DNA of 64,000 nucleotides from Lytechinus pictus (lineage: Eukaryota): positions 11,354,148-11,418,147 of the forward strand of contig NC_087247.1 in NCBI RefSeq assembly GCF_037042905.1, written 5' to 3'. Each line of letters begins with the position of its first letter. Position 1 is the stretch's first letter. A model generated the notes under the pieces. That model worked only from the letters and a program-made list of their open reading frames with translations, was not told where the DNA came from and ran no database searches. Made by a program: the position numbers and the translations under genes. Below are positions 6,107 through 61,948 of this stretch, piece by piece.

Positions 6107-7233
6107 ACAAGTGGAACGCATCTGGCAGTCTCGCCTGTATTACGCGATCCAATTTAGCAGCAGTGCTGACTTTGAAAACAACTATCGAATTATTCACAAA
6201 AACACCATTCATATGATAATATAATATTATGTTCATTGACCCTAAATGACCTTTGACCTTGGTTATGTGACATGACACTCACTCTGCATATTCAGTGATA
6301 TATGATTGCTCTTATGTAAAAGTTTCATGAACTAGATCTATAAACTTTCATAGTTATGATAGCAATTCAACAAATAACCCTAACATGGCCAAAGTTTATT
6401 GAACCTAATAACTTTGACCTTTGCCATGTGATCATAATGTTCAGTGATATACCATTACCCTTATGTCCAAGTTTCATGAACTGGATTCCTAAACTCACGA
6501 CATTTCAAAAACTTAACCTCAGTTAAGATGTTGAATACCACAACATGATATGTTAATTGACTCTAAATGACCTTTGACCTTAGTCCTGTAACCTGAAACT
6601 CCGGCAGGATGTTCAGTAACACTTGATTAATCTTATGTCCAAGTTTCATGAACCAAGTCCGTAAACCTTTTATAGGACAAGTCCACCCCAACAAAAAAAT
6701 GATTTGAATAAGAAGAGAAAAATCCATCAAGCATAACACTAAAATTTTCATCAAAATCGGATGTAAAATAAGAAAGTTATGACATTTTAAAGTTTCGCTT
6801 AATTTCACCAAACAGTTTGTTTAATACTGTATGATTCAGTCAAGTCGGTCCCTATGGTCAAATCTGTAAAAAAATGAAATATTGTATAATTCAAACAATA
6901 AAAAACAAAAGAAAAAGTGAGTGATGGACATCATCGACAGACTAATTTGCATGTCACTGAGTTGTGCATATCACTGTTTTGTGAAAAATAAGCGAAACTT
7001 TAAAATGCCATAATTTTCTTATTTTACATCCGATTTTGATGAAATTTTCAGTGTTATGCTAGTTTGATATTTCTCTATTTATTCAAATCAAAATTTTGCT
7101 GGGGTGGACTTGACCTTTAAGTTATGATATTTCAAAAACTTAACCTTGGTTAAGATTTTAATGTTGACGGCGCCGCCGTCGCAAAAGCGGGGCCTATATA
7201 GTCTCGCTCTGCCATGCAGGCAGGACAAAAATG
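6107..7233 (+). mobile_element. TIR-bounded non-autonomous element carrying an internal satellite-like array. About 14-bp terminal inverted repeats GTCTCGCCTGCAT / ATGCAGGCGAGAC. Internal tandem ~140-170-bp units (..ttcattgaccctaaatgacctttgaccttggt.atgtgac.tgaaactc..). Copy E1 is full length and hosts the nested Harbinger-like MITE.
   Basis: The start ..acaagtggaacgcatctggcaGTCTCGCCTGtattacgcg and the end ..ggcctatatagtctcgctctgccATGCAGGCaGGACaaaaatg are shared by six loci. The internal units are visibly reiterated. Confidence 0.75.
6680..7117. mobile_element. ~440-bp MITE with ~130-bp terminal inverted repeats (GGACAAGTCCACCCCAACAAAAA...). It has a 3-bp TTA target-site duplication, so it is PIF/Harbinger-like. 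Present in duplication copy A only.
   Basis: Copy A reads ..aaacctttta[tagGGACAAGTCC....GGACTTGACCttta]agttatgat. Copy B at about 11375 reads ..aaaccttttaagttataatgat with no element. Related copies lie at 22375..22960 and partially at 28330..28510. Confidence 0.8.
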
Positions 7234-9104: not shown

Positions 9105-10570
9105 AATTATGCCCTGCAAAAACGACCATATAGACCAATTTGAGATAATCAACGTGGCTACCGTAGAAAAAAACCTTCATAAACCATTATTATTCACATA
9201 ATTCTTTGCCCAATCATATTGAGCATGATATTGAGTCACTGGCGTACCTAGGATTTTCCAGAAGGGGGGTAAATTTTTTGGAGGATATTTCATACCACAA
9301 AAAATTGACAAGCAAAAAAAAAAAAAAAGGTCTTCAACCACAAATAAAAGAATTTCGTACCACCAAAAAGAAAAAAAAAAGAAAAAAAAAGGTCTTCAAC
9401 CAAAAAAAGGATTTCTTACCACCAAAAAATTTGACAAGCAAAAAAGAAAAAAAAAAGGTCTTCAGGTTCAAATGACGTCTTTTTTTATTGCATATTTACA
9501 TTACAAATTATTAATTTGGCATCTCAAAATGGGGGGGGGGGGGGGCACGTCCCCTGTATCAGTTGTGACTCGTCAGGGGGGGCAGGGAAACGTCCCCTGC
9601 ATGATTTGTGACTCGTCAGGGGGGCAGTCTGCCCCCCCCCCTTAGGTCCGCTAGTGTATTGAGTCCTTTTTATGCTTTCAGAATTAAACATAAAATTTAG
9701 AAGACATCCAGTCTGATTAATCTAACTGAGGAAATCCGTGATGCATAATACATGTCCTCATAACATAACTGTCATACCATTCTATTTTATTTGGATTCAT
9801 TCAAATTGAGAGTCTTTTTTCCCAGTGAGCAAATCACAAATCTAGATATTATTCAATCTTCAAATTAGTTACGAATTTCGCCTATAAATCTAATAAACTT
9901 GAGCGTAATTTGTACAATCAGCCTTGACATTAATTACATTTAAAAAAAAAGACAAAAGTCTGCAGTCTCGTCTGCACTACGCAATTCATACATGTAGTGA
10001 TACTGTAAATTCGAAACTTTTCTCTCTTTTATTTAACATTTGAAAATATAATGCAATAATCCACGGCCACTATTATTCAAAATGTAAATTATTGGTGCCC
10101 ACTAATGCTGTAATAAAGAAATGTTCACTAAACAGGAAATTGCCAAGCCCTAATATTCAATATTAGGGCTTGGCAATTTCCTGTTTAGTGAACATTTTTT
10201 TTTTCTTTTTTGCTTGTCAAATTTTTTGGTGGTAAGAAATCCTTTTTTTGGTTGAAGACCTTTTTTTTTCTTTTTCTTTTCTTTTTGGTGGTACGAAATT
10301 CTTTTATTTGTGGTTGAAGACCTTTTTTTTTTTTTTTTGCTTGTCAATTTTTTGTGGTATGAAATATCCTCCAAAAAATTTACCCCCCTTCTGGAAAATC
10401 CTAGGTACGCCAGTGACTCAATATCATGCTCAATATGATTGGGCAAAGAATTATGTGAATAATAATGGTTTATGAAGGTTTTTTTCTACGGTAGCCACGT
10501 TGATTATCTCAAATTGGTCTATATGGTCGTAAATATTAAATGATAATCAGGCCTGATTATCATTTAATAT
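9105..10570. repeat. Fold-back inverted duplication in copy B. 10159..10520 is the reverse complement of about 9105..9455 plus 10100..10157. It is joined through a perfect 81-bp palindrome centred at 10158 and closed by a second perfect ~50-bp palindrome at 10521..10570.
   Basis: Identical peptide MPNHIEHDIESLAYLGFSRRGVNFLEDISYHKKLTSKKKKK appears in ORF 9206..9475 (+) and ORF 10150..10446 (-). 10118-10157 is the exact reverse complement of 10159-10198. cgtaaatattaaatgataatcagg|cctgattatcatttaatatttacg is a perfect palindrome. Confidence 0.85.
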
Positions 10571-20759: not shown

Positions 20760-21900
20760 ACATGTACATATTGGTGACATAAATTGAGGATATAGAATTA
20801 AAATTGTTGAAGAAATGACATAGAGCATTTTTTGTGATCTATGATTAAATTTCATATAAATTAAGCATAAATAATTATCTAGTCAAAATGTCTAAAATCT
20901 GTGTAGAACCTTGGTGAACCTCATGTAGCAGCTCTCTCAGATCTATGGAACAAAAATATTCAAAATCAATCAACAAATAAATAAGCATTTTTTTGTGAGT
21001 TTGAAAATATATGAATAAATTAGCATATTTAATTAGTTTCAAAATTCTGCGTTGAAATTTTGTATCACCACCTAGAGCTATCATATAAGGCAAACAAAAT
21101 TGAAATTGATCAACAAATGAAGGAGAAAAAACATTTTTTGTGATTTATGTACAAATTTTGCATAAATTAGCATAATTTTCTAATAAAAATTTCAAACTTT
21201 TGTGTAGAAGTTCGGTGAACCTCATGAAGTTCTACCGGATGAAATAAAAAAAAATCAAAATCGGTCAACAATTAAAGAAGCATTTTATGCGGATTTTTAA
21301 AAATACGCATAAATTAGCATATTTAATGAGTTTCAAAATTCTGTGTAGAAATTTCGAATCCCCCACCTAATGCTATCATATAAAGCAAACAGAATTGAAA
21401 TCGGACTTGAAATGACTAAGAAGCATTTTGAAATTCAGTCAACAAATATGAAGAGGCATTTTCTGTGATTTATGAATTTCGCATAAAGTAGCATAAATAA
21501 TTTTCTACTACAAATTTTAAAATTCTGTGTAGAAGTTTGGTGAACCTCATGAAGCTCTACCAGATGGAAGGAAAAAAAAATCAAAATCGGTCAACAAATA
21601 AAGAAGCATTTTATGTGAATTTTAAAAAATATGTATAAATTAATTTCGCATAAATTAGCATAAAAATTGTTCTAGTCAAAATTTCAAAACTCTGTGTAAA
21701 AGTTTAGTGAACCTCATGAAGCTCTACTAGATGGAAGCAAAAAATTCAATATCAGTCAACAAATAAAGAAGCATTTTTGAAAAATGCACATAAATTAGCA
21801 TATTTAATGAGTTTCAAAATTTTGTGTAAAAGTTTTGAATCCCCCACCTAGTGCTATCATATAAAGCAAACAGAATTGAAATCGGACTTGAAATGGCGAA
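20760..21900 (+). repeat. Tandem repeat of ~4 copies of a ~290-bp AT-rich unit.
   Basis: Reiterated ..gcataaattagcata..tttcaaaattctgtgtagaagtt.ggtgaacctcatgaagctctacc.gatgga.. at about 20880, 21170, 21480 and 21700. Confidence 0.8.
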
Positions 21901-22374: not shown

Positions 22375-22960
22375 CAAGTCCACCCCAACAAAAAGTTGAT
22401 TTGAATAAAATCCACCAAGCATAACACTGAAAATTTCAGCAAAATCAGATGTAAAATAAGAAAGTTATGACATGTTAAAGTTTCACTTAATTTCACAAAA
22501 CAGTTATATGCACATCCTGGTCGGTATGCAAATGAGGTGACTGATGACGTCATCCACTCACTATTTCTTTTGTATTTTATTATATGAAATATTCTAATTT
22601 TCTCCACAATGTTAAGTGAATCAACGACTAATTCCTCCCTAAACATGTGGAATTAGCATTGTTTAATACTATATGGTTCAGTCAAGTTGGTCCTTATTGT
22701 CAAATCTGTAAAAAATGAAATATTGTATAATTCAAACAATAAAAAACAATAGAAATAGTGAGTGATGCACATCATCGACTGTCTCACTTGCATATCACTA
22801 AGTTGTGCATATCACTGTTTTGTGAAAAATAAGTGAAACTTTAAAATGTCATAACTTTCTTATTCTACATCTGATTTTGATGAAATTTTCACATTATGCT
22901 AGTTTGATTTTTCTCTATTTTTTCAAATCAACATTTTTCTGGGGTGGACTTGACCTTTAA
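22375..22960. mobile_element. Second copy of the GGACAAGTCCACCCC long-TIR MITE family.
   Basis: Termini ggacaagtccaccccaacaaaaagttgatttgaataaaat... and ...ttttcaaatcaacatttttctggggtggacttgacc. ORF-track peptides 22317..22646 and 6563..6811 are homologous (FLILH..L.K..VLCL.DF..I.F.LLGWTCP). Confidence 0.7.
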
Positions 22961-32559: not shown

Positions 32560-34030
32560 AACAAAATAAATGGAAAAAAAAAGTTCTGCACACGATCATT
32601 ATGACCAGGCCTAGCTCAATGCAACAAAGAGAAAACACAACATGGGAGAAAAATTCAACAACACTATAAAGAGAAAAGTTCTGCATGCAATATTAAAGGT
32701 TGTTTACACTGATGATAGCCAAACATGAAATGGAAGATAATTCAATGTCATTATATGGAGCAAAGTTCTGCATGCAATCATAGTACAATAAAAAACATAA
32801 AGTGAGAGCTCAACTGTAAATAGAAACCTCCTACATGCAATATTGATAGTGGATTGGTGGAACACCCAGAAAACATAAAATGGAAAATACTCGATGTTAT
32901 TAATACTGTATATGGAGCAAAGTTCTGCATGCAATCATAATAACCAGGTTTTGGTCAAGTACAACATAAAGAGAAAACATAGAATAAGAGCTTAAGTGTA
33001 TTTAGATCAAAACCTTCTACATGCAATATCAATAGTGGATGACTGAAAATAGCCAGAAAACACAAGAAAATTCATATTAGAAGCAAAGTTCTACATGCAA
33101 TCACAATAACCAGGTTTTGGTCAAATAAAACATAGAATAAGAGCTTAACCCTAAAAGAGCCGGGTTATTTGGACACATCTCACAGCCGGGGAAGGGTGGA
33201 TTCTGCCCCCCCCCCCCCCCCGAGATCTCGGCGTTCGATCGCGCCAGTGCCGCGAAAATTTGCAGTGGTAGTGTGTGATATAATCTACAAGGCTGTATGG
33301 TTAATTTTTTGGAAATAATAAGATTTTTAATTTCATGAATTAATTATGCTAATTTATTCATTAACATTTGCTCTAATCAACTATTATACTGCCTAAAAAC
33401 TGCTAATTTGTTATTCACAGACTCTTTGGAGGATCCTGATCAAATGTACTTCAAAAAAAATTTGGTATCACAATTTTTTTCTTATGTATTTTATTGTGTT
33501 TAAATTTCTTTGTTTTTCAACTTTTTTGTTTTTATTGTTTTTTCGATGGAAATTGTTGCAGACTTAATTTTGAATAACAAACAAGACAAAAATTATCCAA
33601 TTTAATCAGTAAAAGTAGAAATAATGATACGTTTATGAATTTTGGCTAAATACACAATTTGCATTGGATTTGTACATGAATTCACGTTTTTGAGCAGTTT
33701 TGGGTCTGACATGCACTTACATAATGTTAAGTAATTTTGTAATCGTGTACCCGGGCATCACAAATTTGGTCTCAAAAGTTGCGCGAGATTTGAAAGTAAA
33801 AAGTCAGCGGCAGGGTTGAAAAATTTCACGCGGCGGATTTATCGTAAAAATGTAGATGGGGGGGGGAAGGAATCTGCCCCAGGCCTTTTAGGGTTAAGTG
33901 TAGATCAAAACCTTCTACATGCAATATCAATAGTTGATTACTGACAATAGCCAGAAAACACAACATAATTCAATGTTATTATTTGGAGCAAAGTTCTGCA
34001 TGCAATCATTAAAACCAGGCATGGCTTCTT
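32560..34030 (+). repeat. Tandem array of ~150-bp units (..agcaaagttctgcatgcaatcat...ccttctacatgcaatatcaatagtgga..), split by the piggyBac-like insertion.
   Basis: At least six reiterations of ..aagttctgcatgcaat.. / ..ctacatgcaatat.. are visible on both sides of 33149-33893. Confidence 0.8.
33149..33893. mobile_element. piggyBac-like non-autonomous element (~745 bp). Termini are CCCTAAAAG..../....CCTTTTAGGG. It is flanked by a duplicated TTAA and inserted into a 150-bp tandem repeat.
   Basis: ..gagcTTAA[CCCTAAAAGAGCCGGG...GGGGCAGATTC... ...GAATCTGCCCCAGGCCTTTTAGGG]TTAAgtgtagatc.. The uninterrupted repeat units read ..gagcttaagtgtatttagatc.. with a single TTAA. Confidence 0.7.
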
Positions 34031-35597
34031 TGAAACAAAGAAAGAGATACATGTAGCAATAAATGGGAGAATATTGGTGAGTTTTAGAATGAGTGAACGA
34101 GAACGACGTATCAGTCCACTGATCTGGTGTGTCAACGTAGTCGTCTGTCTATTTTCACTACAGATATGCATATTTAAGATTTTGCTCGACGTGTACGTAC
34201 GTCCACATGAAACTGTGTGATAGCGAGCGGGTCATGACATGCTGACCAACCCGGAAGATCTGGCGTACCATCACGTCACGACCCGGTCGGCTGATGCGAA
34301 GGTGCAACTTATGCACACTTGCTTTGATTCCTTTTTACCGGAGTTAGGAGATATAGCGATACAAATTTTGGAGTTCAGAAAATAATTTCAAATATGATAA
34401 ACATAATGCATCGTGCAACTTACATTAATTTTGTGTAAATTCACTGAAAACTGTGTTTTATAGGGCAATGATCCATTACAATTGATCTTCATGCTGAGCT
34501 TGAGCGGTTGAAATGACGTCACTCACGTGCACGTCGACCATAATTTAGGAGAACAGCAGAATGCAGGTGGCGAGGCCAAAAAATTACTCAACTATAGGGA
34601 AATAAGTTCCGCAATGGTGTTCATTATAACTAGACGTGGCTCAATGAAACAGACAGAACACATGCAATGGGAGATAATCTTGATTTCTGCATTAAAAAAC
34701 AACAAAAACAAATGAGAAGGGAGAAACTTACTTGTTTGCCACAGTATGTACAGCTGATATTGTCGAAGACCCTGCCTTGTGTTCTAGCCCAACAGCACAC
34801 TGCACAAGAAAGATAAAACACAAGTGCATTAAAGGGACTGGTTAATATCAATTTGACTAATTATAAAAAAAACCTGTGCTGCAAGGGACTTAAGGCATTT
34901 CTTTTTTCCAGTCCAGAGTTTTAGGATTGCAAATTTCATTTTATACTTGATGTGTGTTCTTTTTGTTGTTGTTTGCGCTTTGGGCCATTTTGGGAAAAGC
35001 ACAGTACATAAATAATATTAAGGTACCAATTGTCACCTCCTCTATGATATGTTATAAAATTAATGTCCTGATAAAATAGCCTCAAAAATAATTATTTAGT
35101 GCTATGTAATTAAAAAAACTAGAGTGACCACAAACACCATCCCAATTTTATTCCATGTATGTGTTACAATTTGTATCCCCAGGGGGACAACTTAGATGAC
35201 GATATTCCAGTCACAGATCTCTTAAAAGTGCATGAATTTGATTTTTTTTTCCTTCCCAGGTATTTTAATTATCAGTATAAAAAATGTTAAATATAATGCA
35301 CATTAAAGTTTGGGATTTTAGACCTTTGTACTATTATTAATGCTACCTTAAGTATTTGGATTTACGTAAAGAAAATTAGAGACAAAACAACACCCCCCCC
35401 CCCCCTCCTCCCCAAAAAACCCAGTCATCCATAATGCTCATCTTATATAAAGGGACTGAGCCATATACATAGTGGTTTTCTTTATTACTGATTAATTTTT
35501 GTTAGCCAGTGATTATGTTAATTTTGGTGCAAACAAGTTTCACAGGAAAATGAAAGTATAAAGTTAATAGTAACATTATATGAGATTAATTGGAGAG

Positions 35598-42231: not shown

Positions 42232-42915
42232 CCTACATTTGGTCCTGTGGTCAGCGGATCTTCAATCAATTTTAGTCTTTGTTCCACCCCCTCCCCGATA
42301 CCTCCCAAATCCTCATTACAATTGATCTTACCCTTGTTTCTACATCCGTCCATTCACCGCTGTACTGCTCAGGGGGGCGTTTCATGAAAGGACTTGTCGG
42401 ACGTTTTATCTGACAAGTCCCATTTTATCCAACAGTTACCATAGGAACAGTGCCTCTCAGCCAATCAAAATCATGGAAAGATGTCAGATCTGACAACTTG
42501 TCGGATGAAAATATTGATGAAACGCTCCCCTGGGTCATCTTCAACCCTCCGTTTGGTCCTCATGATGGCTGTGGTCAGTGGATCTTCGGTTAATCATGGC
42601 CCTTGTGCCACCCCCTCCCAAACCCATCCCCAATCCCCATTACAATTTATTTTACCCTTGTTTCTACATCCGTCCATTCACCGCTGTACTGCTCAGGGTC
42701 GTCTTCAACCCTAAGTTTGGTCCTCATGGCGGATGTGGTCAGCGGATCTTCAATCAATCTTGCTCTTTGTGCCACCCCCTCCCCGATACCTCCCCAATCC
42801 ACATTACAATTTATCTTACCCTTGTTTCTACATCCGTCCATTCACCGCTGTACTGCTCGGGGTCGTCTTCAACCCTCCGTTTGGTCCTCGTGGTCGTCAG
42901 TGGATCTTCGGACTT
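42232..42915 (-). repeat. Tandem array of about four ~161-bp units. Each unit is a copy of the 3' ~100 bp of the KIF23 terminal coding exon, including the TAA stop, plus ~60 bp of 3' flank. One unit is interrupted by a MITE.
   Basis: Direct repeats of ..tctacatccgtccattcaccgctgtactgctc(a/g)ggg tcgtcttcaaccct..ggtcctc(a/g)tgg..gtcag(c/t)ggatcttc.. at about 42232-42357, 42536-42697, 42698-42858 and 42859-42915. Minus-strand ORF 42647..42841 repeats ..RVEDDPEQYSGEWTDVETRVK*. Confidence 0.85.
42358..42535. mobile_element. MITE inserted inside one unit of the KIF23 3' tandem array. TIR GGGG(G)CGTTTCATGAAAG ... CATCAATGAAACGCTCCCC.
   Basis: Terminal inverted repeats are visible. The insertion interrupts the otherwise collinear repeat unit between ..gctcaggg and gggtcatcttcaaccc... 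It is related to the copy at about 13600-13700. Confidence 0.7.
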
Positions 42916-42978
42916 CAACTTCTCAACATCAGTGAACTGCACTGCCCGTCCACCGCCTCTGGTTGGTATCACTTCAGC
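42811..42978 (-). CDS. KIF23: KIF23 terminal coding exon: AEVIPTRGGGRAVQFTDVEKLKSEDPLTTTRTKRRVEDDPEQYSGEWTDVETR(VR*). TAA stop at 42811-42813 if unspliced. A GTAAGA donor sits immediately after ..ETR, so a further short 3' coding exon cannot be excluded.
   Basis: Acceptor catcctcag|GCTGAAG. Matches human [22 protein letters not shown]...SEWTDVETR. The in-frame stop lies 2 codons after ETR. Confidence 0.7.
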   Translation of the reverse strand, partial: AEVIPTRGGGRAVQFTDVEKLKSEDPLTTTRTKRRVEDDPEQYSGEWTDVETRVR

Positions 42979-43710
42979 CTGAGGATGTGAACATAAGATG
43001 CAACACATAAAAACACCCAAAACTATGACTGTTTCCTTCTCATTTACAATATCTGAGAATGAAACGTAGGAAAACATAAATTACGAACAGTAATTAATAA
43101 GGTTTTCATGTTGAATATAAATTGCTGAAATACTTTGGTAGACTTATAAAGAAAAAAAAATTCCCTAATTTTCTTTTCATGGTTTGTGTTTCAAGCTCCA
43201 GAAACGTTTACAAATTAAATGGGAGATTTGAGTACTGGAAAAAGTCAAGTCTAGACCAGTAATAATAACAATAATACTAGCATGCTTATATAGCGAATAT
43301 CGGCGCTGCCAAATGCATCGCAATATGGATAGACTACATGGATTTAACTAATTAGATTTAACCCATATGGAATGAGACTTTCTGAAATGTAGTGCAACTG
43401 TTTGTAAATCAAGTGAATTTCAATCCTTTGAAACTTGTAATAAAACCATTTGTTTTCCCATTCAGGGTTGTGAGTGATCACAAATAAAAATAAAAAATTT
43501 AAAAAAAGAGCTGAAAAAAAGCTGCAGAGTGTTGAATAAAGATGAAATTGTTGAAGAGAGCTCCCAAGGCTTTTGTATAAAGGAAAGCTAGATCAAATCA
43601 ACAGCAAAAAAAACAAACTGAAAGTGAAACCAGCTATAAAGAAGCTGAAGACCTCATAGGATAAATAAATCATCCTTTGAACCTGTGTAAGTATTTCGCT
43701 GCTTCCTTAC

Positions 43711-46699: not shown

Positions 46700-48150
46700 T
46701 TTTTTTTTTTTTGCAGGATTTTCTGCATTTATTGGAATATATACAAAACAAATTTACAATGCTTGAGACATAATCATAATATAGCATAAAGTACATAACC
46801 AAGTGACAATCTTATATGTAGTGACTGGAGAAAGACATAAATACAATATATAAAAAATATATATAATAAGTAAAATGCAGAGGCAAACTATATAAGCAAA
46901 TATATGCTTGAAGCATAGCAGCCAAAAAAGGGAAGGGCTACATGGAGACCTAAGAAATTAATTGTGTCTGTAAGAAAAAAAAAATTAATGTCACGAATCA
47001 TCAAATAACGGGGAAAAAAGTAGAAATTGACAAATGAAGTGTGTGCTAGTGAGTGCTAGTGGGTGCAAGTGCAGGTGAGAGATTTATGAATATCTGGATA
47101 AAATATATTTTTTCAATGAAGCTTTAAAAGAAAAGACAGATGCAGTGAGTTTAATATGATTTGGTATGTTGTTCCATATATCTGGGCCGTGGTGTCTAAT
47201 TGTTTTCTGTGCTAAAATTATTTTCGGGTTTGTCAAATGAAAGTCTGATGAGTGACGTGTAGGATATGAATGAATGTCGCTATTGTAGGTAAACATGTTT
47301 TGAAAGGATGTAGGTATAGCATTGGTTGAGAATTTGTACATAAAAATGGCAGATTGTAAAGTATGGATATCGTTCATTTTCAACGTTTTGAGTTTCCGAA
47401 AAATGGGATCAGAGTGAGCTAAATATTGCGAATGGGTGCAAATACGGAGTGCCTTTTTTTGAAGGCGCAGAATTGAATCTATTTTTGTTTTATTGCTATT
47501 ACCCCACAATATATTGCAATATGAAATATGTGATAAATATGTGACAACATAAATAGTGATCTTTGGGAAAGACAATATTTGAGTTTATATAATATACCAA
47601 TACCTCTGGCAACTAGTGTGCTAACATTATGAATGTGGCTGTTCCAAGTTAAATTAGAATCGATTATTACCCCTAAAAATTTTGTATCTTGTTTTTCAAT
47701 GAGACTGATGTTATTAATTTGAATGGAACCACGAAATGTATGTTTAGAATTAAGGTGTTTAAAGTATATGAAATTTGTTTTGTTAATGTTTAACAAAACA
47801 ATTTGATACATACGCAAGTGATCTTTGTCTTTTTTCTAAGTTTCTCCTAGAATATAAATATAGGGAGATTCATGCTGCAGTAAATACATGTTGGCGTTTT
47901 CATGATAATGGGTGTGATGCTTTTCTTCTCGTTTAGCATTCCCGGATGAATAAAGGTTAAAGGTCACAAGATCAATCGCAGGATATCCCTGATATGTGAT
48001 ATCATAACATTGATAACTAGATTGATTCATGACTGCGGACAGTTTATGCCCCTGCCATTGCCAGCCTGAGAATGTATTACACACTTTTAATAACTGTTCA
48101 AATACTCCAATTGGAGTATTCAAGCATTGAGCAGCTACGTCACTCATGCA
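46700..48150 (-). mobile_element. 5'-truncated non-LTR retrotransposon (CR1/L2-like LINE): RT C-terminal fragment plus 3' tail, in the KIF23 intron between the 48.6 kb and 46.6 kb exons.
   Basis: Minus-strand ORFs 47479..47817 and 47084..47575 carry LINE RT C-terminal signatures. These include LGVIIDSNLTWNSHI, ..YCNILWGNSNKTKIDSILRLQKKALRICT..AHSDPIFRKLKTLKM, and a CR1-like ..FKASLKKYILSRYS* end. An A-rich tail follows at about 46700-46716 on the minus strand. Confidence 0.7.
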
Positions 48151-49623: not shown

Positions 49624-50817
49624 CTAGAATGGGACAGACAATAATAATGAAATGCAACACTTATCATACTTAATACAATGTAAATTATGATTCTAAGCAC
49701 TGTTCACTATTACCCTGGCAATATCCTAGTTATAAGCCTGATCTCACTGGTTTTAAGAAATTTAAGGGTAATTAGTGTTATTCATATATTTTAATGGTTA
49801 AGGTAATTCACCTTATTGTTGCTCTTTTCTCTGTAGGATTTCAATAGATTAAAGGAGAATGAAACCCTTGAAACCAGCTGAATCCATATCATAGAGAAAA
49901 ATCAAAGAAACATATTGTTGGAAGTTTGAGGAAGATTGAATGAATAATAAGAAAGTTATGAGCATTTGAATATTGAGATCACTAATGCCATGTAGATCCT
50001 CCCATTGGCAATGCGACCAAGATCTGTGATGTCACACACGTACAACTCCCTTATTACTTTAGTACTTATTTCACCTATATTCTCACTTTTATAGAGTCTA
50101 ACACAAGGTTAGGTGTTCTCTTTATGAGAGGACAAGTACAGAGGTTTCACAACATTATATCATTGATGAATCGTTTGTCATATGATTAGAATGAGCAAAA
50201 AGAGATGTTTTGGGGTATATTTTCAGTGTCCAAAAGGGGAGAGTTGTTCATCTGTGATATCATAGATCTTGGTCGCATTGCCAATGGGAGGATCTCCATA
50301 GCATTAGTGATCTCGACATTCAAATGCTCATAACTCTTCTATTGCTAGTCCTATTTTACTCAAACTTTTGTTGATCTTATTCTTTGATTTTTCTGCTTTC
50401 ACAAAAGCTAACTTGCTTCAAGAGTTTCATTCTCCTTTAATATTTACATCCATCTCATTAGTTTAATTATCAATGATTGCTAAGTTTAATTTCATGAAAG
50501 TATATGCTGGGTCATTTTCCTGGTGCACTCTAGGTTAATGTTTTATAGTCAATTTCTCCAGGGTGCCTGGATACTCTCCTCTTTTCCTCCTCCTTTTCGG
50601 TTCTTTCTCAAGTGCACTACGGGAATGACCTTGTAATGCCCAATGTTTTATACTCTTTATTGTTTAATTTCTCATGATTCTTCTGATAGGTAATTCATGT
50701 TCATTTCAGTTTGTACTGCTAGACATGTTCTTTTCAATAAAATCCATTTTATCTATCTTATTTAATGTTTCTAATGTTTTTTTTAAATCAAATATTCCAA
50801 AATAAAAACGAACGAAC

Positions 50818-50915: not shown

Positions 50916-51359
50916 CTGCAAGAAAAATAGAAAATGCAATATTTAATGAGAATTAAAGATAACTTGACTTTTGATGGGGGGTTAATTTGTCAGCTAAACA
51001 AATTTCCGATCATCTTAACCATGTCAACAATTTTATTTTGCGTAACCAGAAGAACTGATTTGCATTTTATTATATTCTTTCTCTTAGTAGTACTGACTAA
51101 GATATATACTCTCTTGTGAATTGAAAACCCTCAAACTACTCAGAATAAATTTAAAAAAGCTGAAGCACGTTGAAAAGACTAAAATTGAAAGAGCTCCCAT
51201 GGCTTTTGTACAGACGGAAGCTAAAATAAAGCTGGAATTAAGCTGAAAATAAAAAAGCGAAATAGCTGAAATCTCACTCCTCAGATAGTCTATCATAGTC
51301 AAGCACTCCACTTCAAAATCAACAAAGTTTCTGATAATCTTAAATGTATATGCACTCAC

Positions 51360-51456
51360 CCTTTCTCCTGCCTGGGGTAAGACCGATGTCAAATCTGACC
51401 TCTGTTGGTCTCGCTACTTGTACTTCCTGCGTGATCTCTGCAAACCTCATAACATG
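51360..51456 (-). CDS. KIF23: KIF23 exon: HVMRFAEITQEVQVARPTEVRFDIGLTPGRRK(+1 nt). Neck linker.
   Basis: Acceptor cttcaaacag|CATGTT; donor AGAAAGG|gtgagtgc. Matches human LQVMRFAEVTQEVEVARP..GLTPGRR. Confidence 0.85.
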
Positions 51457-52338
51457 CTGTTTGAAGCAAAAACAAGACCAAAGCTTCATCAGTAATCAAC
51501 CATTCATATTCATCATAGAACTTTCAACTGTATTTTCCGAATGCAGACAATCGCAGTCAACGGCAACAAAGAACAAAAAGTTAAATACAACTAAATACAA
51601 GTTTAATACGCAGAAGCCTTGTGTCCTAGCTCAGCAGTTGGATTTTTTTGTCCAAGTATTCGCAACTGAATGCAACTAAATCCAAATGAGCAAAGACGAG
51701 TGGTAATGACAGTGGCAACGACAAATTCGAGCAAGGACACGCAAGGATGCGAAACAAGTAACAGCAAGCATCTCATGCAGGGTAACAGTGTTACTGCTCA
51801 ATTTACCTTGCCTTAGCTTGCATCACCTCGCTACGCCGAGTGCAACTCTATCGAGTTGGTACGCAAAAAAGGAAGTGCAATCAAATATAATGCGGAGAAT
51901 GCTGTGTAAAACTGCATCTTGTTGCTTTCTGTTTGCAAAGCAATACTAGTAAGTAGCTTAAAATGCAAAGGTGTGAGCCAATCCTACAGGGGATTATTCT
52001 TCAGTCATTGTCAAATTATGCTTGGTATTGAACTAGGTAGTAATTGGAGGGCTCTTTCGTAACAAGGATTATCTGAAAAGGGGGATGATCAAGGATAAAA
52101 ATCTGAAAACTATTTGGTTTATATTCCGTTGTAGCGGTGCAAGAATGCCCTCAGCAAAACATTTTCGTGCACCACATCCGTAAAGAAACGCCTTTACATA
52201 TTGCACTTATGTGCGTTGCCAAGGGCGTTTTTGTGCGCATGTGATACAAAAAATTGTGGTTATAAGGGCGTTCTTGCACTGACACGATTTACATATACAC
52301 GCAAATTAAGCTATATCGGAGATTATACCAAAACTTAC

Positions 52339-52458
52339 AGTGGTTTCATCATAGTCCTTTGCACTGGGGTTGACACACACCACCATACGGACTTTACCCT
52401 CACCGTCAAAGTAGTTCTTGAAAAGATGGGTGAGTTTGGACGTTCTGTAAGGGACCAT
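52339..52458 (-). CDS. KIF23: KIF23 exon: [40 protein letters not shown].
   Basis: Acceptor cttttccacag|ATGGTC; donor ACCACT|gtaagtttt. Near-identical to human [31 protein letters not shown]. Confidence 0.9.
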
Positions 52459-52831
52459 CTGTGGAAAAGAAACATCATTTCATTACCAGTGAGCAGCGAT
52501 TGACAATAGATTAACTCTGTTCCGATTCAGTCTTTGTGTTTTGTTATTAGAGGTAACAGAGAATTACGGAATGTTGAAAGTCCTTCAAATCAAAATTAAT
52601 TGCAATTAATTACAAATTTGCAATAGATCGCAAGTCTCCTTTTTCTATCAACAGGTATATATCGATTTGCTTTGATTGAACATCGACCTATCATTGGAAA
52701 ATTTGCATCCGAAATTTGCAATTGATAGCAAAAATTTTCTTGCAATGCAACACCCCCAAAGTCGCAACCTTGAACAACTCCAACCCAGATCAAGAGAAGA
52801 TCCATCAGATTCTGAGACAGTTTCAACTGAC

Positions 52832-53014
52832 CTTGTTGGCTCCTTCCGACTGGTTCTCTCTCAACGTCTCGATGCATGTTCTGAGTGTCATCAGCGACGC
52901 ATTGATGCTACCGGCTTCCTTGAGTCTGTCCCCCGTGTTGTTGGTTCGGTTGGTCCTTTCACTTCCAGCCAGGTCAACCAGGGACAGCTGGCTGATGGCA
53001 ATCTGGTCCTTGTC
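52832..53014 (-). CDS. KIF23: KIF23 exon: [61 protein letters not shown]. Contains switch II.
   Basis: Acceptor tattgttcag|GACAAG; donor AACAAG|gtcagttg. DLAGSE switch II and the ..NxSL..L..CI motif. Confidence 0.9.
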
Positions 53015-53446
53015 CTGAACAATAGTAATTATCATAAAAAATGGTTTACTGAACTGTTGCTGAAGCGGCCTCCGTAGTACACACAATTGCCTTAAGCATG
53101 TTTAGCACAAGAGTTGAAGCCAATCAAACTTCCCTGATTTGAGGCATTTCTATCCAATTCCTCGAATTTTTGTCGAGTGGAAAAAGAAAAACGATTGCCC
53201 CTGATTATTCCTGATGGGCTGGGAACCCTGCCAATCATTCAGTGAATTTTCATATCCTAAAAAACATAAAGACCTACTCCGGAACATTTCCATTCACATC
53301 AAATGCCAAACTGGGCCCGGTAACACAAAGCTTAGCAATCATCATAGAACAATATGAACAATTACTCATGAAAATCAAGCATACGGCTACTGGCTGGCTA
53401 ACGTTTGTGTTTATAATACAGGACCCCGCTCTGTTGACTGTCTTAC

Positions 53447-53568
53447 CTGTATGACCTCCTGGCCCAGTGAGTCTAGGGGTGCCTGGACCAGTCTGATATT
53501 GAAGACACTGTGGCTACGACTTGACTCTGTGTTCAGCTGGGTGTGAGCAACCTTACGCCTGGCCTGAC
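53447..53568 (-). CDS. KIF23: KIF23 exon: (G)[40 protein letters not shown]. Contains switch I.
   Basis: Acceptor ttaacacaacag|GTCAGG; donor CATACAG|gtaagac. The SSRSH switch I motif is present. Matches human [21 protein letters not shown]. Confidence 0.9.
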
Positions 53569-54354
53569 CTGTTGTGTTAACAGTCAAGGTCAAAGGTCAT
53601 TTATGGATAGCTTTCAAAATACTTATTTTGCTCCTCCTGACCTTCTCAGCTGTGAATACGCTATTGATTCACTTGATTAATAATTGGCAGAATGTCAATA
53701 GGTGAGAACCAAAAACATGACACCAAGCAACTTTCCACATTCAGTTCCCATTCTCCCTTAACTTGCCTGAGAAGCAAAACTCTATTATCCTTCTATAAAC
53801 AGTTTGATTCATTGACATGTACATGTAGGTAACCTTGCATGAGAAGACCTTCCCTAAGTCAAATATTTGCCAGAGTCAAATAAATTCTTTAGACCATGGG
53901 GCCGTTTCACAAAGATTTAAGTATGACTTAGAGTTGTATCTAAATGCCGACACGTACATGATATGCAACACGCAATCATTGCGCAATAGTGCGCGTCCTC
54001 TTGGCACGATCTGACAAATGCGGACATGCATTTTATATCGCAGGCAACTAGGCATTTAAGTGCGACTCTAAGTTATACTTAAATCATGGTGAAACACCCC
54101 CCTCCCCTCTCCTCTCCTAGGTAAAATTTCTCCTCTAAGTGGAACAGATTCCTGTGGAGTCCCAAAATATTCGACTAATGCAGAGTTTCCCTTACTTCTA
54201 CATGTGTCATCCAACATATACCTTGCCATACTTTTTAACTTGCTAAGCTGATGATGCCAAATGAAGTAAAATCCAATATTGCATCACAATATACCAAATT
54301 GAACGATTTTATTAAAAAGGAGGGAGTCTTATTTGGATTGTTACCTTTGAGGAA

Positions 54355-54467
54355 GACCTTATATGCATCATCTGTTGACTTGACCTCTATCTCAGTACAC
54401 ATCGCAACATACATGTTATGATTGCAATCTTCTCTCAGAATTCTTGGTGTCAAACCCCTAAAAAGTA
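54355..54467 (-). CDS. KIF23: KIF23 exon: (K)GLTPRILREDCNHNMYVAMCTEIEVKSTDDAYKVFLK(+1 nt).
   Basis: Acceptor tactttttag|GGGTTTG; donor CTCAAAG|gtaacaat. Matches human [30 protein letters not shown]. Confidence 0.85.
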
Positions 54468-57212
54468 AATGAAATAGGAAAAAAATATGGTTAAAATTTT
54501 TTTTTTTCAGAGTGGACATCATAATGCAAATGGGCATGAGAACAATGAAAGAGAAAGTAAACATTAATGTACAATTGAAAGGTACATAGGTATGGCATTC
54601 ATCTTCTCTACATTTATGACAAATTTTAAGACACACACACACACACCCAAATAAGGAAAGTACCATTCTGTATTGTTTTTGTCTTTAGGTAACATCCACA
54701 ACCAGCCTTGTTTAACCAATTCCGATTCTTATTCTTGACTTACATATAGACCAAATTTACAAGACCCTTTCTTACATATAGACCAAATTTACAAGACCCT
54801 TTCCTTGCATTAAAAATTGAATACTGCATGCTAAGCAACATACATGTACTATTCAATACAAGTTTAACAGTACTAAATTACTTTTAGTCAAACTTTGAAT
54901 TGCATATCCATTGTAGATGCCCAACTCTACCCGAACTTATATTGACTACTGAAGTTCTATTACAATCATTTTTTTAACAAGAGATATGCAATATATTGCA
55001 AAGAGACAATGAATTGGATTATTTGAGTACAAGGTCTGCTTTGCGTAGCAGTATTTTTTTTAATGTTTTCAATATCATTTCCTCAAAGTTATTTGAAAAG
55101 CTAATAGCCATTAACTAAAATCTTCATAATCTAAAGCCCCCATCACACTTATTCCGAATCAAGCAGAATTGGCCAGAATGAAAGGACTATTGTTCGACCA
55201 CCAGTTGGTCATTTAAATCTACTTCCAACACCGTTCGAAAATACCCCTCGAATGTTTTGAACATGACCAAAACCTTCGGGACGGCCAAAAGAAATGACAA
55301 AATATTTCGAATGCACTCAGAATATTTAGAATGTGCCTAGAATGTCCAAGAATATAGCACGAATTATCAATCTGACTCCATTGCAGTTCATTTTTACTAG
55401 TGTATGATGATTCACCTGGTCAATTTACTGAATTTCAACTCCAGTTTGGTGAATTCATAAGTTCCTCCCAAAAATTTCTAGATTTTTGAATACTTTTTTT
55501 GTTCCAGCTTCTGCTTGATTCCTGCTGATTCCGACTAAGTGTGAGGGGGGCTTAAGGTAAATAAAAGCTGAAAAGGAATATCACCTAAACACAATTATAA
55601 ACAGGCCTTGAAATTCCTTACAACAAAGAGGAGCATGTTTTGGGTTTTTTTTCATATAGCCTTCTACATGTACATTCATACTAAAATAGCTGCAAAAGTG
55701 CCTTTTACATGCAAAATGACTAATGCCTCAGATGATCTTTGTAGGTTTGCATGGTGGAGTTAATGACGTGGAGACGGTTTACGGTCGGTCCACCATGTGT
55801 AATATGAAGAAGGGAAAGGAAATACAGGCAGAAAATTGAAATGGAAAGACAAGAAAGGGTGAAAAGAGGAAATTAGAAGTATTCTTTTTCGACTAATGAC
55901 TAATTGTTAATATGCATATAAAACTTAACAGTGAATTAGCTTTGAAATATAAACAAATAGTAACTGTATGCACTTCAGTCACAGGGAAAATGAGAGGACA
56001 GCATCAAGTGGAAGGGAAAATAAATTAATATAATAATTAATCATAAATTGAATAAAATAATGTGTAGGCTTCTACCAACCCTGAACAATATATTTTGACA
56101 GGCTTTAGAATGTCCATGAGAGTGGATGAGAGCTTGTCAAAAATATTATTAAGGTTGGTAGAAACTTACATACTTTGCTTTGATACAGAACTTAATACAT
56201 CAGATCAGAATCTCTAAAGCGATTTACATATAAATAGAATAGTGAGTAGAATTTGGTAATACAAATTTGTTTAAAACAAAACATGATTGAAAGAAGAGTG
56301 ATACTAAAACCACTTTAATAACACCATTTTCAATCACTGCACTTAGTTGTGAAGTGGCCCTAATTAAAAAGAACTAAACAGAAAAGCAAAGCAGGAAACA
56401 TAAAACCAGCTATAAAATAAATATGAAATAAAGAAACCAAACAGAAAACTCAATAACATACATTTCATCTCTGTTCCAACGATTCCTGGTGTAAGCAACA
56501 AGGTATTGAAGAAAAAAGAGAAATGTATAAAATCATAAAGTACATAAACATAATGAATAAGCGTTAGGGACGTGTAACTTCATAGCTTCATTTCATTGGG
56601 TGAACTGTATGGTAAAGTGATGTGAACCTCCAAGTTGGCATGATAACATGAAATGAGTTACAAATGATTAACAAACAGTGGAACATGACTTTTATACAAT
56701 GATTGTGACATGTATGTCAACACACAGTTATGACAATGTCATTTGACCCCATGATCTAATGGTGATTAAAATCACTGAGCACCAAATGTGCCGAAAAAAT
56801 TTAACCTTTGGTGTATGAGGTTTAATAGTGTCAGTCATACTTGCCAGCATTTAGAGATATGCAAAATCTGGACAGCCAAGCCCAAAGGCCGAGGGTCCAG
56901 AGGGCCGACTGAGACCCTGGGAATGAGGCAGGGGTCAAGATGGAAGTTCCCCCTGAATATCCTGTATTTTAGCAACTTTAACCTTAAAAGGACTGGGCTA
57001 TTAAAGATGTATTAAGGAGTGAATGGCTCTATTTATCAGCACATCCTGATTTTTTTTTTGCCATTTTGAAAGTTGAAAATCAGGACCATCCTGATAAAAT
57101 CAGGACAGTTGGCAGGTCTGGGGTATTCATCGATATAATTACTGAACTTGAGATCAGAGTATGAATCAAACCCAAGATTAGAATACAGGCATTTATGTTT
57201 CAAGATACTCAC

Positions 57213-57377
57213 TTTGAATGGAGTGAGTAGGGAACCTCCTCTAGGAGGTCAAAGATCTGATTGTTGTAGATCTCAACGTAGGAAACATAGATGGCATAGT
57301 TGTTATCCTCGTCCACGGTGCTGAGGCAAGTAGGGTCCGGAACCCGTACAAAGTTGTCCAAGTCCGGAAAAGCTTTC
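57213..57377 (-). CDS. KIF23: KIF23 exon: (K)KAFPDLDNFVRVPDPTCLSTVDEDNNYAIYVSYVEIYNNQIFDLLEEVPYSLHS(+2 nt).
   Basis: Acceptor caatccccag|GAAAGC; donor TTCAAA|gtgagtat. Conserved kinesin Y.VS..EIYNE...DLL block. Confidence 0.85.
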
Positions 57378-57875
57378 CTGGGGATTGAAAAAAGAATCAA
57401 TGGTTCACAACTGATAAAGACCTGCAAACATCAAACATCCTTCTACATTATTATTTAGTTGGAGAAGGGCAATTATTACCCTTCTGCAACTAAATACTGA
57501 GTGGCAAGATGGCAGGAAGAAGGTCCCATAATACCTCTGTTGTAATCAATGCTTGGGCAGATTTGCCAACATTTGAAATGCAGAAAACTGAACCAAATAT
57601 TGCGAGAGAGCAAAGCGACCAAGGGGGTGTCCCCCTCCCACGGTAGGGAGCTTTTGCATTTTTGGACTTACAATTGTGCAAACTGGTATCTTGAGAGAAA
57701 ATTCAGCCTCAAGAATAACTCTACTTGGGTGTGTTATGATTTGCCCAACCAGAATACAGAAATGGATAATTGAATATATTAAAAAACAATATTAATAATT
57801 GACACACTAAAAGATGCACCCAAATCCATACTCACAAAATCTGAATGTTAAGTTTTTTAGGGAAATTAAATCTTC

Positions 57876-59056
57876 AACAAGTGGAACGCCTCTGGCAGTC
57901 TCGCCTGCATTACGCGATTTAATATAGCAGCAGTGCTAACTTTGAAAACTACTATTAAATAATCATTCACAAAAACACCATTCATATAATGACATAATAC
58001 CACGTTCATTGACCATAAATGACATTTGAACGGTGACTTAAGACTTGTCAACTACACCCATGTCCACACTTCATTCACTCTATCCATAAACTTTCAAAGT
58101 TATGATGGCAATTCAACAATTACCCTTACATGGCCTAAGTTTATTGACCTTAACTGACCTTTGAACTTGGTTTTGTGACCTGAAACTCACAGGGGATGTT
58201 CAGTGATACTTGATTACTCTTATATCCCAAGTTGTATGAACTAGATCCATAAACTTTCAGAGTTAGGATGGTAATTCAACAAATACCCCTAACACGGCCA
58301 AAGTTCATTGACGTTTAATGACCTTTGACCATGGTCATGTGACCTGAAACTTGTACAGGATGCTCAGTGATACTTGATTACTCTTATGTCCAAGTTTTAT
58401 GAACTAGATCCATAAACTTTCAGAGTTAGGATGGTAATTTAACAAATATCCCCAACACGGCCAAAGTTCATTGACCTTAAATGACCATTGACCATGGTCA
58501 TGTGACCTGAAACTCGCACAGGATATTCAGTGGTACTTGATTAATCTTATGTCCAAGTTTCATGAAAAAGATCCATAAATTTTCAAAGTTATGATAGTAA
58601 TTCAACAAATACCCCCAACTTGACCAAAGTTCATTGACCCAAAATGACCTTTGACCTTGGTCACGTGACCTGAATCTCAAGCAGGATGTTCAGTAATACT
58701 TGATTAACCTTAAGCTCAAGTTTCATGAACTAGGTCCATATACTTTCTAAGTTATGATGTCATTTCAAAAACTTAACCTTCGATTAAAATTTTGAAAATA
58801 ATTCTCCCAACATGGTCTAAGTTCATTGACCCTAAATGACCTTTGACCTTGGTCATGTGACCTGAAACTCAGGCAGGATATTCAGTAATACTTGATTAAG
58901 CTTATGTCCAAGTTTCATGAACTAGGTCCATATACTTTCTAAGTTATGATGTAATTTCAAAAACTTAACCTTAGGTTAAGATTTGATGTTGACGCCGCCG
59001 CCGGCGTCGGAAAAGCGGCGCCTATAGTCTCGCTCTGCTATGCAGGCGAGACAAAA
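57876..59056 (+). mobile_element. Same family, copy E6: full length with about six internal units, located in a KIF23 intron.
   Basis: Start ..acaagtggaacgcctctggcagtctcgcctgcattacgcg. End ..cgcctatagtctcgctctgctatgcaggcgagacaaaaactgg. ORF-track peptides 57866..58051 and 5985..6278 are homologous. Confidence 0.75.
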
Positions 59057-59717: not shown

Positions 59718-59887
59718 TTTGGTTTTCTGCTAGGTGTGATGGGCGCACGAGCGCTTTGGGGTGTCCTGGGAGTGCGTGGGGTACGTGGTGCTACCGGCGG
59801 AGGCATCAACTCCTTCTTCTGTCTCTCCAACATAGCATCGGCCTCCGTCTGTACATCCATGCCATTCACCCTGTCCGGCTTGAAAAC
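59718..59887 (-). CDS. KIF23: KIF23 exon: VFKPDRVNGMDVQTEADAMLERQKKELMPPPVAPRTPRTPRTPQSARAPITPSRKP(+2 nt). The long loop-6 insertion typical of kinesin-6.
   Basis: Acceptor cttgtgtag|GTTTTCAAG; donor CCAAA|gttagtac. Collinear with human [27 protein letters not shown]. Confidence 0.75.
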
Positions 59888-60460
59888 CTACACAAGATTA
59901 ACAAATGTTTTGAGTCAAGATTATGAAAATGGTTGATGAAGAAATTAAAATTTTCAACTTTTCAGTTTTCTATACTTACAGTTGTAATCTTTCTAGTCTT
60001 GAATAAGGGATACCCTAGTCTTACTTCTGACAAGTTAATTTTCTGTAAACACTTATCCAATTGTGATTTACTATTTAACCAGATATGTACATGTAGGACT
60101 GTGTGACTACACCAAAATGTCACTTTTCTTCAGTTGTGCAAGGTTTTGTAGTAGAGTGGAACTCGCATAAGTCGAATCTCTTGGGACTGGAGTTAGGATA
60201 GTGATTTTCCATTTACTGGAAAAGCAAAACAGAAAATTTGTTTTGGTTCTTTACTTTTCACTTGGAAATTCATACAATATATAACTTTGAAAATATTCAT
60301 CTTTTTTTAATGACAAAATAGAATTTCCATTTTAGATCAAATTTGGAAATGAAATAAACAAGCTTTCGGAAATTGAAAATTCACTGTCCCTTCTGGAGGA
60401 TTGACAAATTCTGAAAATCTGTTCGATGGTGGTTGGTACGTATTGATGATAATAACTTAC

Positions 60461-60597
60461 ATATTTCCTGGCCTGTAGATCACCGAGGCTGTTGAAAAGG
60501 ACATCAAGACACCTCGGCAGGACTCCTCCGTCCGTGGGTGTCCCCTGCATGGTGTACGTCTTACCCGACCCCGTCACTCCATACATAAACAGCAAAG
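60461..60597 (-). CDS. KIF23: KIF23 exon: (S)[46 protein letters not shown]-loop plus the kinesin-6-specific loop-6 start.
   Basis: Acceptor tttctttttcag|CTTTGCTG; donor GAAATAT|gtaagtt. GxxxxGKT Walker A. LPRCLD..FNS matches the MKLP1 insertion. Confidence 0.9.
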
Positions 60598-61205
60598 CTG
60601 AAAAAGAAATCAGGATGAAAATGGATGAATACTGATAACACCAAGTTACATTGAGAATGTATTCATCCTCAGAAAAAAATTAGTAACTGCAAGGCCAAAC
60701 CTTCAATGAATGATTCCCCACTATACTTTCTAAAACCTGGTAAAGTTGTATACTAAATTTAAGATATCTGGTAACGGCCAATCATCTGAAATGATATTGG
60801 CAACAAATCAATACCAAAGTAATGATATTCATCTAAGAGCCTTGAAATACAAAGAGATAAAATCAATACATGTATTTATAAACAATTACAATTTGTACAT
60901 GATTTGCCACATAAATAAAAACAAAATTAATTCTACTGTCCAATGTTTCTTTTAGTTTCAGAGCTAAGGGCTCTGTAAAGTTACAGAAAAATCCTAACAG
61001 TATCTTCAAAACATTAGAAAATTATGAATATCAAAATGTGAATCCCATATGTGATTAAAAGTATAATTGATCAATTTTGACAAGTTTTACATTCACAAGA
61101 GCAATAAAATCCAATTCATCAAACTGTTTTTACAACTAAAATATAACTTTGTTGTTTTATAATGGGTTAGGAAGTGATAGTTGGTAATCTAAAAAGATAA
61201 CTTAC

Positions 61206-61311
61206 AATTCTTTCCATGGAGAAGGTCTTCAACCAATGGCAGTGCGATGCTGTCATACACTGCTTTCTGCGAGTATTCCTCGCTGAAAACAAATTTGAAG
61301 ACATGCTGTGT
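61206..61311 (-). CDS. KIF23: KIF23 exon: TQHVFKFVFSEEYSQKAVYDSIALPLVEDLLHGKN(+1 nt).
   Basis: Acceptor ttcttacag|ACACAG; donor GAATT|gtaagtt. Classic kinesin FxFDxVF..Q..VY....PLV..L.GYN block. Confidence 0.85.
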
Positions 61312-61732: not shown

Positions 61733-61948
61733 CTGTAATGAATAAACAACAGAAGTACTGTAAATAATTTTATAAGTGACTTTGCATTAAGTTTACATTT
61801 TCATTTTCAAGTCAGTTGAGCTACATCATGTATCTCAATATTTAAGTTCCATTTCGTATAAAACTTGAACTGGCGGATTAAGTGGGTTTATGAGAAGCAC
61901 AGATTATTGCAGACATGCATACAAAAAGGCAGAGGTTCTGAATCATAC

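Follow-up and report, generated by a model that had tools for sequence, protein, structure and literature searches.

Known TTAA-targeting elements and the locus

Elements of the piggyBac superfamily are recognised by insertion at TTAA with duplication of that target (PMC5381638, PMC4122938), and by terminal inverted repeats (TIRs) of 12–19 bp with tips that read CCC or C[C/A/T][C/A/T] (PMC5381638, PMC10813416). In the piggyBac element of Trichoplusia ni (IFP2), a 13-bp TIR is followed by a 3-bp or a 31-bp spacer and then by identical 19-bp palindromic repeats, to which the C-terminal cysteine-rich domains (CRDs) of the transposase bind in dimerised form; the published spacers place the centres of these repeats ∼26 and ∼54 nt from the tips (PMC5381638, PMC11707139). 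Subterminal repeats of this kind are not universal; besides T. ni piggyBac, they occur in some structural groups. Among the MITEs (miniature inverted-repeat transposable elements) of the superfamily, the CMITEs of the coral Acropora have TTAA flanks and 13–14-bp TIRs beginning CCCTTT… or CCCCTC… (PMC2872659). TTAA is likewise the target of Kolobok elements and T2-MITEs, the termini of which begin with RR/AG and, in T2-MITEs, with AGGRR (PMC6004289), and PIF/Harbinger elements make duplications of 3 bp (PMC4122938). Here, we analysed a stretch of 64,000 nt from contig NC_087247.1 (positions 11,354,148 to 11,418,147; 'the window' in the following, with coordinates counted from its first letter), in which a 745-bp insertion at 33149–33893 is very probably a non-autonomous DNA transposon of the piggyBac superfamily.

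Insertion at TTAA in a short tandem array

An initial annotation of the window had described a 745-bp insertion with TTAA on both sides, and on re-reading, its coordinates and letters proved exact. The element has the tips CCCTAAAAG…CTTTTAGGG, and the sequence at the insertion reads …AGAATAAGAGC TTAA CCCTAAAAGAGCCGGG … CCCAGGCCTTTTAGGG TTAA GTGTAGATC…. The following features define the insertion and its site:

33145–33148, no strand: left TTAA copy of the target-site duplication (TSD); the flank alignments to the adjacent repeat unit share exactly these 4 nt
33894–33897, no strand: right TTAA copy of the TSD, from the sequence and the flank alignments to the adjacent unit
32992–32995, no strand: empty paralogous TTAA in the adjacent repeat unit (…AGAATAAGAGCTTAAGTGTATTTAGATCAAAACC…), from the unit-to-flank alignment
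32575–34040, no strand: host array of ∼4.5 degenerate dimers of 155–180 bp, interrupted by the element, from repeat spacings of 87–95 and 157–166 and from unit alignments

The short tandem array was present before the element, which entered one of its units at a TTAA and duplicated this tetranucleotide. Aligned to the window, the adjacent unit (32909–33074) matches both flanks: its positions 8–87 align to 33082–33148 with 80% identity and its positions 84–166 to 33894–33972 with 89% identity. The two alignments overlap at positions 84–87 of the unit, that is, at its single TTAA (32992–32995). An overlap of exactly TTAA is what an insertion with a 4-bp duplication leaves behind, and the paralogous empty site, with its one TTAA, is in line with the insertion mode of the piggyBac superfamily. 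Presence of the element in further units, which the initial annotation had named as the mark of an ancestral sequence, was not observed; no other unit of the array contains it, and it is therefore an insertion and not ancestral. The same annotation had assigned a single TTAA to the homologous position of the neighbouring units in general. This is correct for one alignable unit (32992–32995) and incorrect for another, where TCAA is found.

The array itself had been called a 150-bp satellite, a term that we do not retain. Satellites are long arrays of many homogeneous tandem units, whereas this array would measure roughly 720 bp without the insertion and consists of a few degenerate dimers, each made up of two related half-units of ∼75–95 bp that both contain TTCTRCATGCAAT. 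Identity among the units is 70–92%. Tandem Repeats Finder (TRF) did not call the array in the window, nor did it do so once the insertion had been removed in silico, and no copies of the unit were detected elsewhere in the window. Between units of the array lies a CpG-rich block of ∼500 bp (34060–34600), which contains an inverted repeat of 20 nt (34179–34198 and 34525–34544) besides motifs of the TGACGTCA and CACGTG types; it may represent a promoter-like island or a further insertion.

Termini of the element

The ends of the element form a short inverted repeat:

33149–33164, plus strand: TIR of the long-spacer side, CCCTAAAAGAGCCGGG; 13/16 complementary to 33878–33893 and 15/16 identical to the left TIR of the related 240-bp element described below
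33878–33893, minus strand: TIR of the short-spacer side (reverse complement CCCTAAAAGGCCTGGG), from its pairing with the left tip

The TIR extends over 16 nt without gaps, of which 13 are complementary (81%) and the outer 9 pair perfectly. With a 5′-CCC start and a GGG-3′ end, these short repeats have the termini expected of piggyBac elements. CCC..GGG together with the TTAA duplication had been taken as the piggyBac hallmark from the start, and the 16-nt TIR supports this reading. Within the 64-kb window, the exact string TTAACCCTAAAAG occurs at the two element tips only, and the only TTAA-CCC…GGG-TTAA pair (n = 1) is the insertion at 33145–33897 itself. A search for a second copy in the window found none, as blastn with a word size of 7 returned only low-complexity or G/C-run matches.

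We estimated chance occurrence by Markov-1 simulations of the window, in which 0.26 TTAA-flanked pairs with a perfect 9-nt TIR, 50–5000 nt apart, are expected per simulated window. Eight such pairs with perfect TIRs were observed. Inspection revealed that most of them are parts of longer inverted repeats with the TTAA inside the arm, and the excess was not used as a sign of widespread piggyBac activity.

A related element in a metagenome contig

We scanned public metagenome contigs with the pattern CCCTAAAAGNNCNGGGN{10,40}GATTCNNNCCCC, from which TTAA had been left out on purpose. One locus matched, in contig JAAUXV010110332.1 (hereafter L001), where a 240-bp element spans 1755–1994, is bounded as TTAA-CCCTAAAAGGGCCGGGCTTTTTGGACCCATCTCACCGCCGGGGGGTGGATTCCACCCCCCTAAGATCTCGG … GGGAGTGGATTCTGCCCCCCCAGTCCTTTTAGGG-TTAA and has a TIR of 14/16. 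The initial annotation had proposed to check whether other copies have TTAA flanks, and this one extra copy, although found by a TTAA-free pattern, does so on both sides; at the window density of 485 TTAA per 64 kb, the probability of this by chance is ∼6e-5. Neither the left-end nor the right-end pattern matched anything in IMG/VR or in 596 Gb of prokaryotic genomes, indicating that the L001 match did not arise by chance.

Likeness between the two elements is confined to their ends. On the left, 53/63 positions are identical (score 76, as compared with a shuffle mean of 15 and a shuffle maximum of 23), and the likeness continues through AGATCTCGG past a C-run of different length. On the right, the two ends align at 38/52. 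The interiors are unrelated, with a best local alignment of 10 nt, as are the flanks. The common left end can be delimited as follows:

33149–33233, plus strand: left-end block common to L001, comprising TIR, spacer, GCCGGGG, subterminal motif, C-run and AGATCTCGG, from the left-end alignment

Judged by these alignments, the element has at least one other family member; the two have ∼85 nt at one end and ∼50–80 nt at the other in common, and differ in the interior. No copy was present in ∼70 kb of related-species contigs reached via protein matches to a long interspersed nuclear element (LINE) and to KIF23 (see below); the copies amount to one in the 64-kb window and the 240-bp relative in the metagenome contig.

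The relative also bears on whether the sequence was ever mobile. It might be imagined as an ancestral portion of the repeat unit that has disappeared from the remaining units, as a chance inverted repeat or as an assembly artefact, and short inverted repeats next to TTAA do arise by chance in a window as AT-rich as this one, as the simulations with 9-nt arms show; elsewhere in the window, several inverted repeats adjacent to TTAA are merely portions of longer palindromes. We nevertheless give such origins next to no credence. The flanks rejoin on one TTAA exactly when compared with the adjacent unit, a homologous element with its own TTAA flanks lies in unrelated DNA of another data set, and the GC-rich ends are sharply unlike the array in composition. 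Loss from the other units would, moreover, need several independent base-perfect deletions.

Subterminal motifs and their spacing

In both elements, a GTGGATTCYRCCCC-like motif is present once near each end, at ∼22–25 nt from one tip and ∼50–53 nt from the other:

33194–33221, plus strand: left motif of the window element, GGGTGGATTCTGCCCC and a run of 16 C; core GGATTC at 33198–33203, centre 53 nt from the tip
33858–33880, plus strand: right motif of the window element, a run of 9 G, AA and GGAATCTGCCCC; core centre 22 nt from the tip
L001, left motif: GGGGGGTGGATTCCACCCCCC, centre 50 nt from the tip
L001, right motif: GGGAGTGGATTCTGCCCCCCC, centre 25 nt from the tip

The motif distances of the two ends thus differ by 31 nt in the window element and by 25 nt in L001, and the asymmetric arrangement of 53/22 nt and 50/25 nt, respectively, is close to the ∼54/26 nt of piggyBac. 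Among the ends, the motifs pair best in direct orientation. The initial annotation had placed GGATTCTGCCCC at both ends: the left copy (33198–33209) is exact, whereas the right one (33869–33880) reads GGAATCTGCCCC and has one mismatch (11/12, direct orientation). Likewise, GTGGATTCTGCCCCCCC at the left end of the window element is identical at 17/17 positions to the right end of L001 (1965–1981), again in direct orientation. As read from the sequence, GCCGGG of the TIR is repeated as GCCGGGG just ahead of the motif on the long-spacer side. Quasi-palindromes of a G-run and a C-run (e.g. GGGGGGGCAGGGGGCAATTGCCCCCCCC) also occur at 9533–9624 of the window and at ∼1300, 2350 and 4370 of the related-species contig L003; short motifs accompanied by G/C homopolymer runs are thus general in these genomes, and we place less weight on those of the element itself.

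Several features are shared with T. ni piggyBac. Both elements have the TTAA duplication and CCCTA tips, the T. ni TIR being CCCTAGAAAGATA (a string confirmed in the literature) and the ends here reading CCCTAAAAGAGCC and CCCTAAAAGGCCT; the T. ni tip CCCTAGAAAG and the window tip CCCTAAAAG are a single-base indel apart. TIRs are short in both (13 bp there, 16 nt and imperfect here), and each end has one subterminal repeat, at unequal distances from the tips (∼26/54 nt there, 22–25/50–53 nt here). Unlike the 2.5-kb T. ni element, however, the insertion has 745 bp and no transposase gene. The motif sequences are also unrelated: the subterminal motif of T. ni piggyBac is TGCGTAAAATTGACGCATG, whereas here GTGGATTCYRCCCC is flanked by G/C runs and is best read as a direct repeat, with only weak palindromy at three of the four ends. 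Finally, the host there is a moth, and here it is an invertebrate whose KIF23 is most similar to lophotrochozoan sequences. We tentatively suggest, with considerable doubt, that the same asymmetric end geometry may be kept in this family, with an unrelated motif and in a distant, lophotrochozoan-like host. If true, the ∼28-bp offset would not be specific to the moth element but would reflect an ancient constraint on the structure of the piggyBac transpososome. The motif spacing, if upheld in more copies together with a cognate transposase, would bear on how piggyBac transposases discriminate between left and right ends.

An element of another superfamily with TTAA or TWA targets, such as Kolobok, Sola or PIF/Harbinger, is an improbable source of these ends. 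Sola elements also make 4-bp duplications. Kolobok elements and T2-MITEs (Xenopus Xmix and its relatives) resemble the insertion in that they target and duplicate TTAA and include short non-autonomous elements with TIRs, and a Kolobok-like TTAA-AGGAGAATGA… element in the window suggests that such transposases were probably active in this genome. Yet only the TTAA part of the Kolobok pattern is found at the insertion, which starts with CCC and ends with GGG in place of the RR/AG and AGGRR termini of that group (PMC6004289). As to PIF/Harbinger, a 3-bp duplication of TTA or TAA with the boundary off by one would formally fit the empty site GCTTAAGT and would have the length known for that superfamily (PMC4122938). 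This reading needs unequal termini, however, whereas the 4-bp reading gives the symmetric solution, a TIR with full TTAA on each side, in both the window and L001, and a TWA duplication is thus not what we find. In addition, the asymmetric placement of the subterminal motifs matches piggyBac specifically (PMC5381638).

The Kolobok-like element is located in an intron of the KIF23-like gene (49849–50440). It has 584 bp, TTAA on both sides, a ∼20-nt TIR starting AGGAGAATGAAAC[C/T]CTTGAA and unrelated outer flanks, and is likely a member of the Kolobok/T2-MITE group by its TTAA and AGGRR signature (PMC6004289).

Interior and classification

Between the conserved ends, the element has the following interior:

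33234–33800, no strand: non-coding interior, AT-rich over ∼33300–33750, without homology to the L001 interior, from GC profile, stop counts and alignment

Every reading frame of the element has 6–20 stop codons and the longest open stretch covers 65 codons, which bears out the earlier description of a sequence without coding capacity. Short as they are and shifted in frame by the variable C-run, the open reading frames (ORFs) of the window element and L001 are unsuitable as protein-level probes. The GC content is 56–72% at the left end and 44–58% at the right end, and drops to 16–36% in the interior (∼33300–33750). When the whole window was searched by tblastn with the transposase of T. ni piggyBac, no match was returned at E ≤ 10; with an approximate query sequence, this is a weak test. 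As far as can be read from the sequence, the window is without a detectable transposase remnant and the element without coding capacity. A 24-nt stretch of the interior (33338–33361) matches, in reverse and at 96%, units of a second degenerate tandem array at 20800–21900, which has spacings of ∼150–165 and ∼300 bp and was mostly missed by TRF; the match may be an AT-rich coincidence.

Being under ∼800 bp and non-coding, with TIRs and a TSD, the 745-bp element has the structural characteristics of a MITE; the MITE-type label of the initial annotation, which also implies amplification to many homogeneous copies, is best kept as provisional. It resembles the known piggyBac MITEs (Acropora CMITEs, Daphnia mPok and the insect ones in iMITEdb), which are non-coding, have TTAA flanks and 13–14-bp TIRs starting with CCC, are moved in trans by piggyBac-like transposases, and were likewise seen as insertions from filled versus empty sites. 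CMITEs differ in that they are ∼100 bp long with a conserved interior and variable TIRs, whereas in the present family it is the ends that are conserved, around an interior that has been replaced (745 versus 240 bp). CMITEs are present in ∼1600 copies per genome.

The element might instead be a one-off piggyBac copy, internally deleted or rearranged, or a composite in which unrelated filler DNA separates two MITE ends; the family's true MITE would then be the short form of ∼240 bp. This is quite possible, although we would not expect it. It would be consistent with the single copy in 64 kb, with a sole relative of 240 bp that has the ends but not the interior in common, with a size at the upper limit for MITEs, and with a ∼450-bp interior that is AT-rich like the host genome between GC-rich ends. 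The interior lacks, however, a detectable transposase-coding remnant, which argues against a simple recent deletion derivative. This is a matter of sub-classification only and is compatible with a piggyBac origin. Since the 745-bp and 240-bp members have unlike interiors, selection for transposition appears to act on the ends only (∼85 nt and 50–80 nt), as expected for non-autonomous elements.

Proposed mode of mobilization

As the element encodes nothing, it would have to be moved in trans by a transposase from elsewhere, presumably a piggyBac-type (DDD) enzyme. On the model of T. ni piggyBac, the CCCTAAAAG tips would be recognised by the transposase core and the GTGGATTCYRCCCC-like subterminal site by a C-terminal DNA-binding domain. 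Cut-and-paste transposition into TTAA would follow, and precise excision would leave a single TTAA; the adjacent unit agrees with such an outcome, but is a paralogue and no product of excision. An empty allele or ortholog would be predicted to read …GAGCTTAAGTGTAG… and …AGAATAAGAGCTTAAGTGTAGATCAAAACC….

Some observations weigh against assignment to piggyBac. No transposase with matching ends was found in the collections searched, which do not contain the source genome, the tblastn search with the approximate T. ni query (a weak test) was negative, and Kolobok elements make TTAA duplications too. With one relative only, the size of the family and the generality of its TTAA flanks rest on two insertions. 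Furthermore, a clean palindrome is present in only one of the four ends (L001 left, 10+1+10), and the G/C runs of the motif resemble G-run/C-run sequences common in related genomes; for both reasons, the motif should be regarded as a putative protein-binding site. Nothing suggests a host function for the element, which we regard as an ordinary piggyBac-type non-autonomous insertion and hence as a well-understood kind of mobile DNA.

If the end geometry is indeed kept, the intact TTAA duplications and conserved ends would also be compatible with a still-mobilisable family and a cognate transposase yet to be discovered. Should the motif spacing be upheld in more copies and such a transposase come to light, an invertebrate lineage with scarce transgenesis tools could prove to have a piggyBac system of its own. 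For annotation, we suggest that 33149–33893 be masked or labelled as a piggyBac-type non-autonomous DNA transposon and that the surrounding repeat not be called a satellite. The locus also provides a clean example of a filled and an empty site inside one window.

Genomic surroundings

The window is AT-rich (31–41% GC), eukaryote-type DNA. Rfam and tRNA scans of the window gave no matches and thus no sign of a short interspersed nuclear element (SINE) or a tRNA-derived element. A KIF23/MKLP1-like kinesin gene occupies 62047–42275 on the minus strand. Its best relatives are from invertebrates, several of them lophotrochozoan, with 69–81% identity; an exact-protein look-up with one ORF of the window gave no match. 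The transposon is located downstream of this gene, ∼9 kb from its last coding exon, and, as far as seen, is intergenic. The exons of the gene are:

Near 61925–62047, 61207–61332, 60422–60667, 59801–59887 and 57008–57430, minus strand: KIF23-like motor-domain exons
Near 54238–54501, 53405–53590, 52715–53098, 52264–52479 and 51343–51456, minus strand: KIF23-like motor-domain exons, continued
Near 49.3–49.6, 48.5–48.9, 46.4–46.8, 44.2–44.5, 43.7–43.9 and 42.8–43.1 kb, minus strand: KIF23-like coiled-coil and C-terminal exons

The C-terminal exons at 43.9–42.3 kb contain YMLTHQE, GGGRAVQFTDVEKLK and EWTDVETR, which we take to be KIF23 motifs. The C-terminal motif …EQYSGEWTDVETRV… is found three times in open minus-strand stretches (42814–43080, 42650–42841 and 42275–42424), coinciding with a TRF repeat at 42532–42893 (period 164, 87% identity), and the last KIF23 coding segment has apparently been tandemly multiplied.

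A fragment of a non-LTR (long terminal repeat) retrotransposon, the LINE mentioned above, lies on the minus strand at 47084–47835 and includes the C-terminal region of a reverse transcriptase. Its relatives (42–78% identity) are nearly all from ENA metagenome assemblies; the ENA contigs that we looked up were all from ERZ26222911 and had neighbouring ORFs with RVT_1 and Exo_endo_phos.

Further repeats in the window include two related short inverted-repeat elements at 6787–7003 and 22475–22844, with arms GACATTTTAAAGTTTC[G/A]CTTA…, in which TTAA lies inside the inverted repeat and does not represent a target-site duplication. A large nested inverted repeat or palindrome spans 63168–63862, its arms extending beyond the TTAA sites at 63168/63862, 63238/63789 and 63553/63662. 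Finally, tandem repeats of 163/192 bp with …TTGACCCTAAATGACCTTTGACC… are present at 58082–58984, and the TTGACCCTAAATG core occurs also at 6236, 10935, 12569 and 16695, which suggests that repeats with this core represent a dispersed family that also forms tandem arrays.

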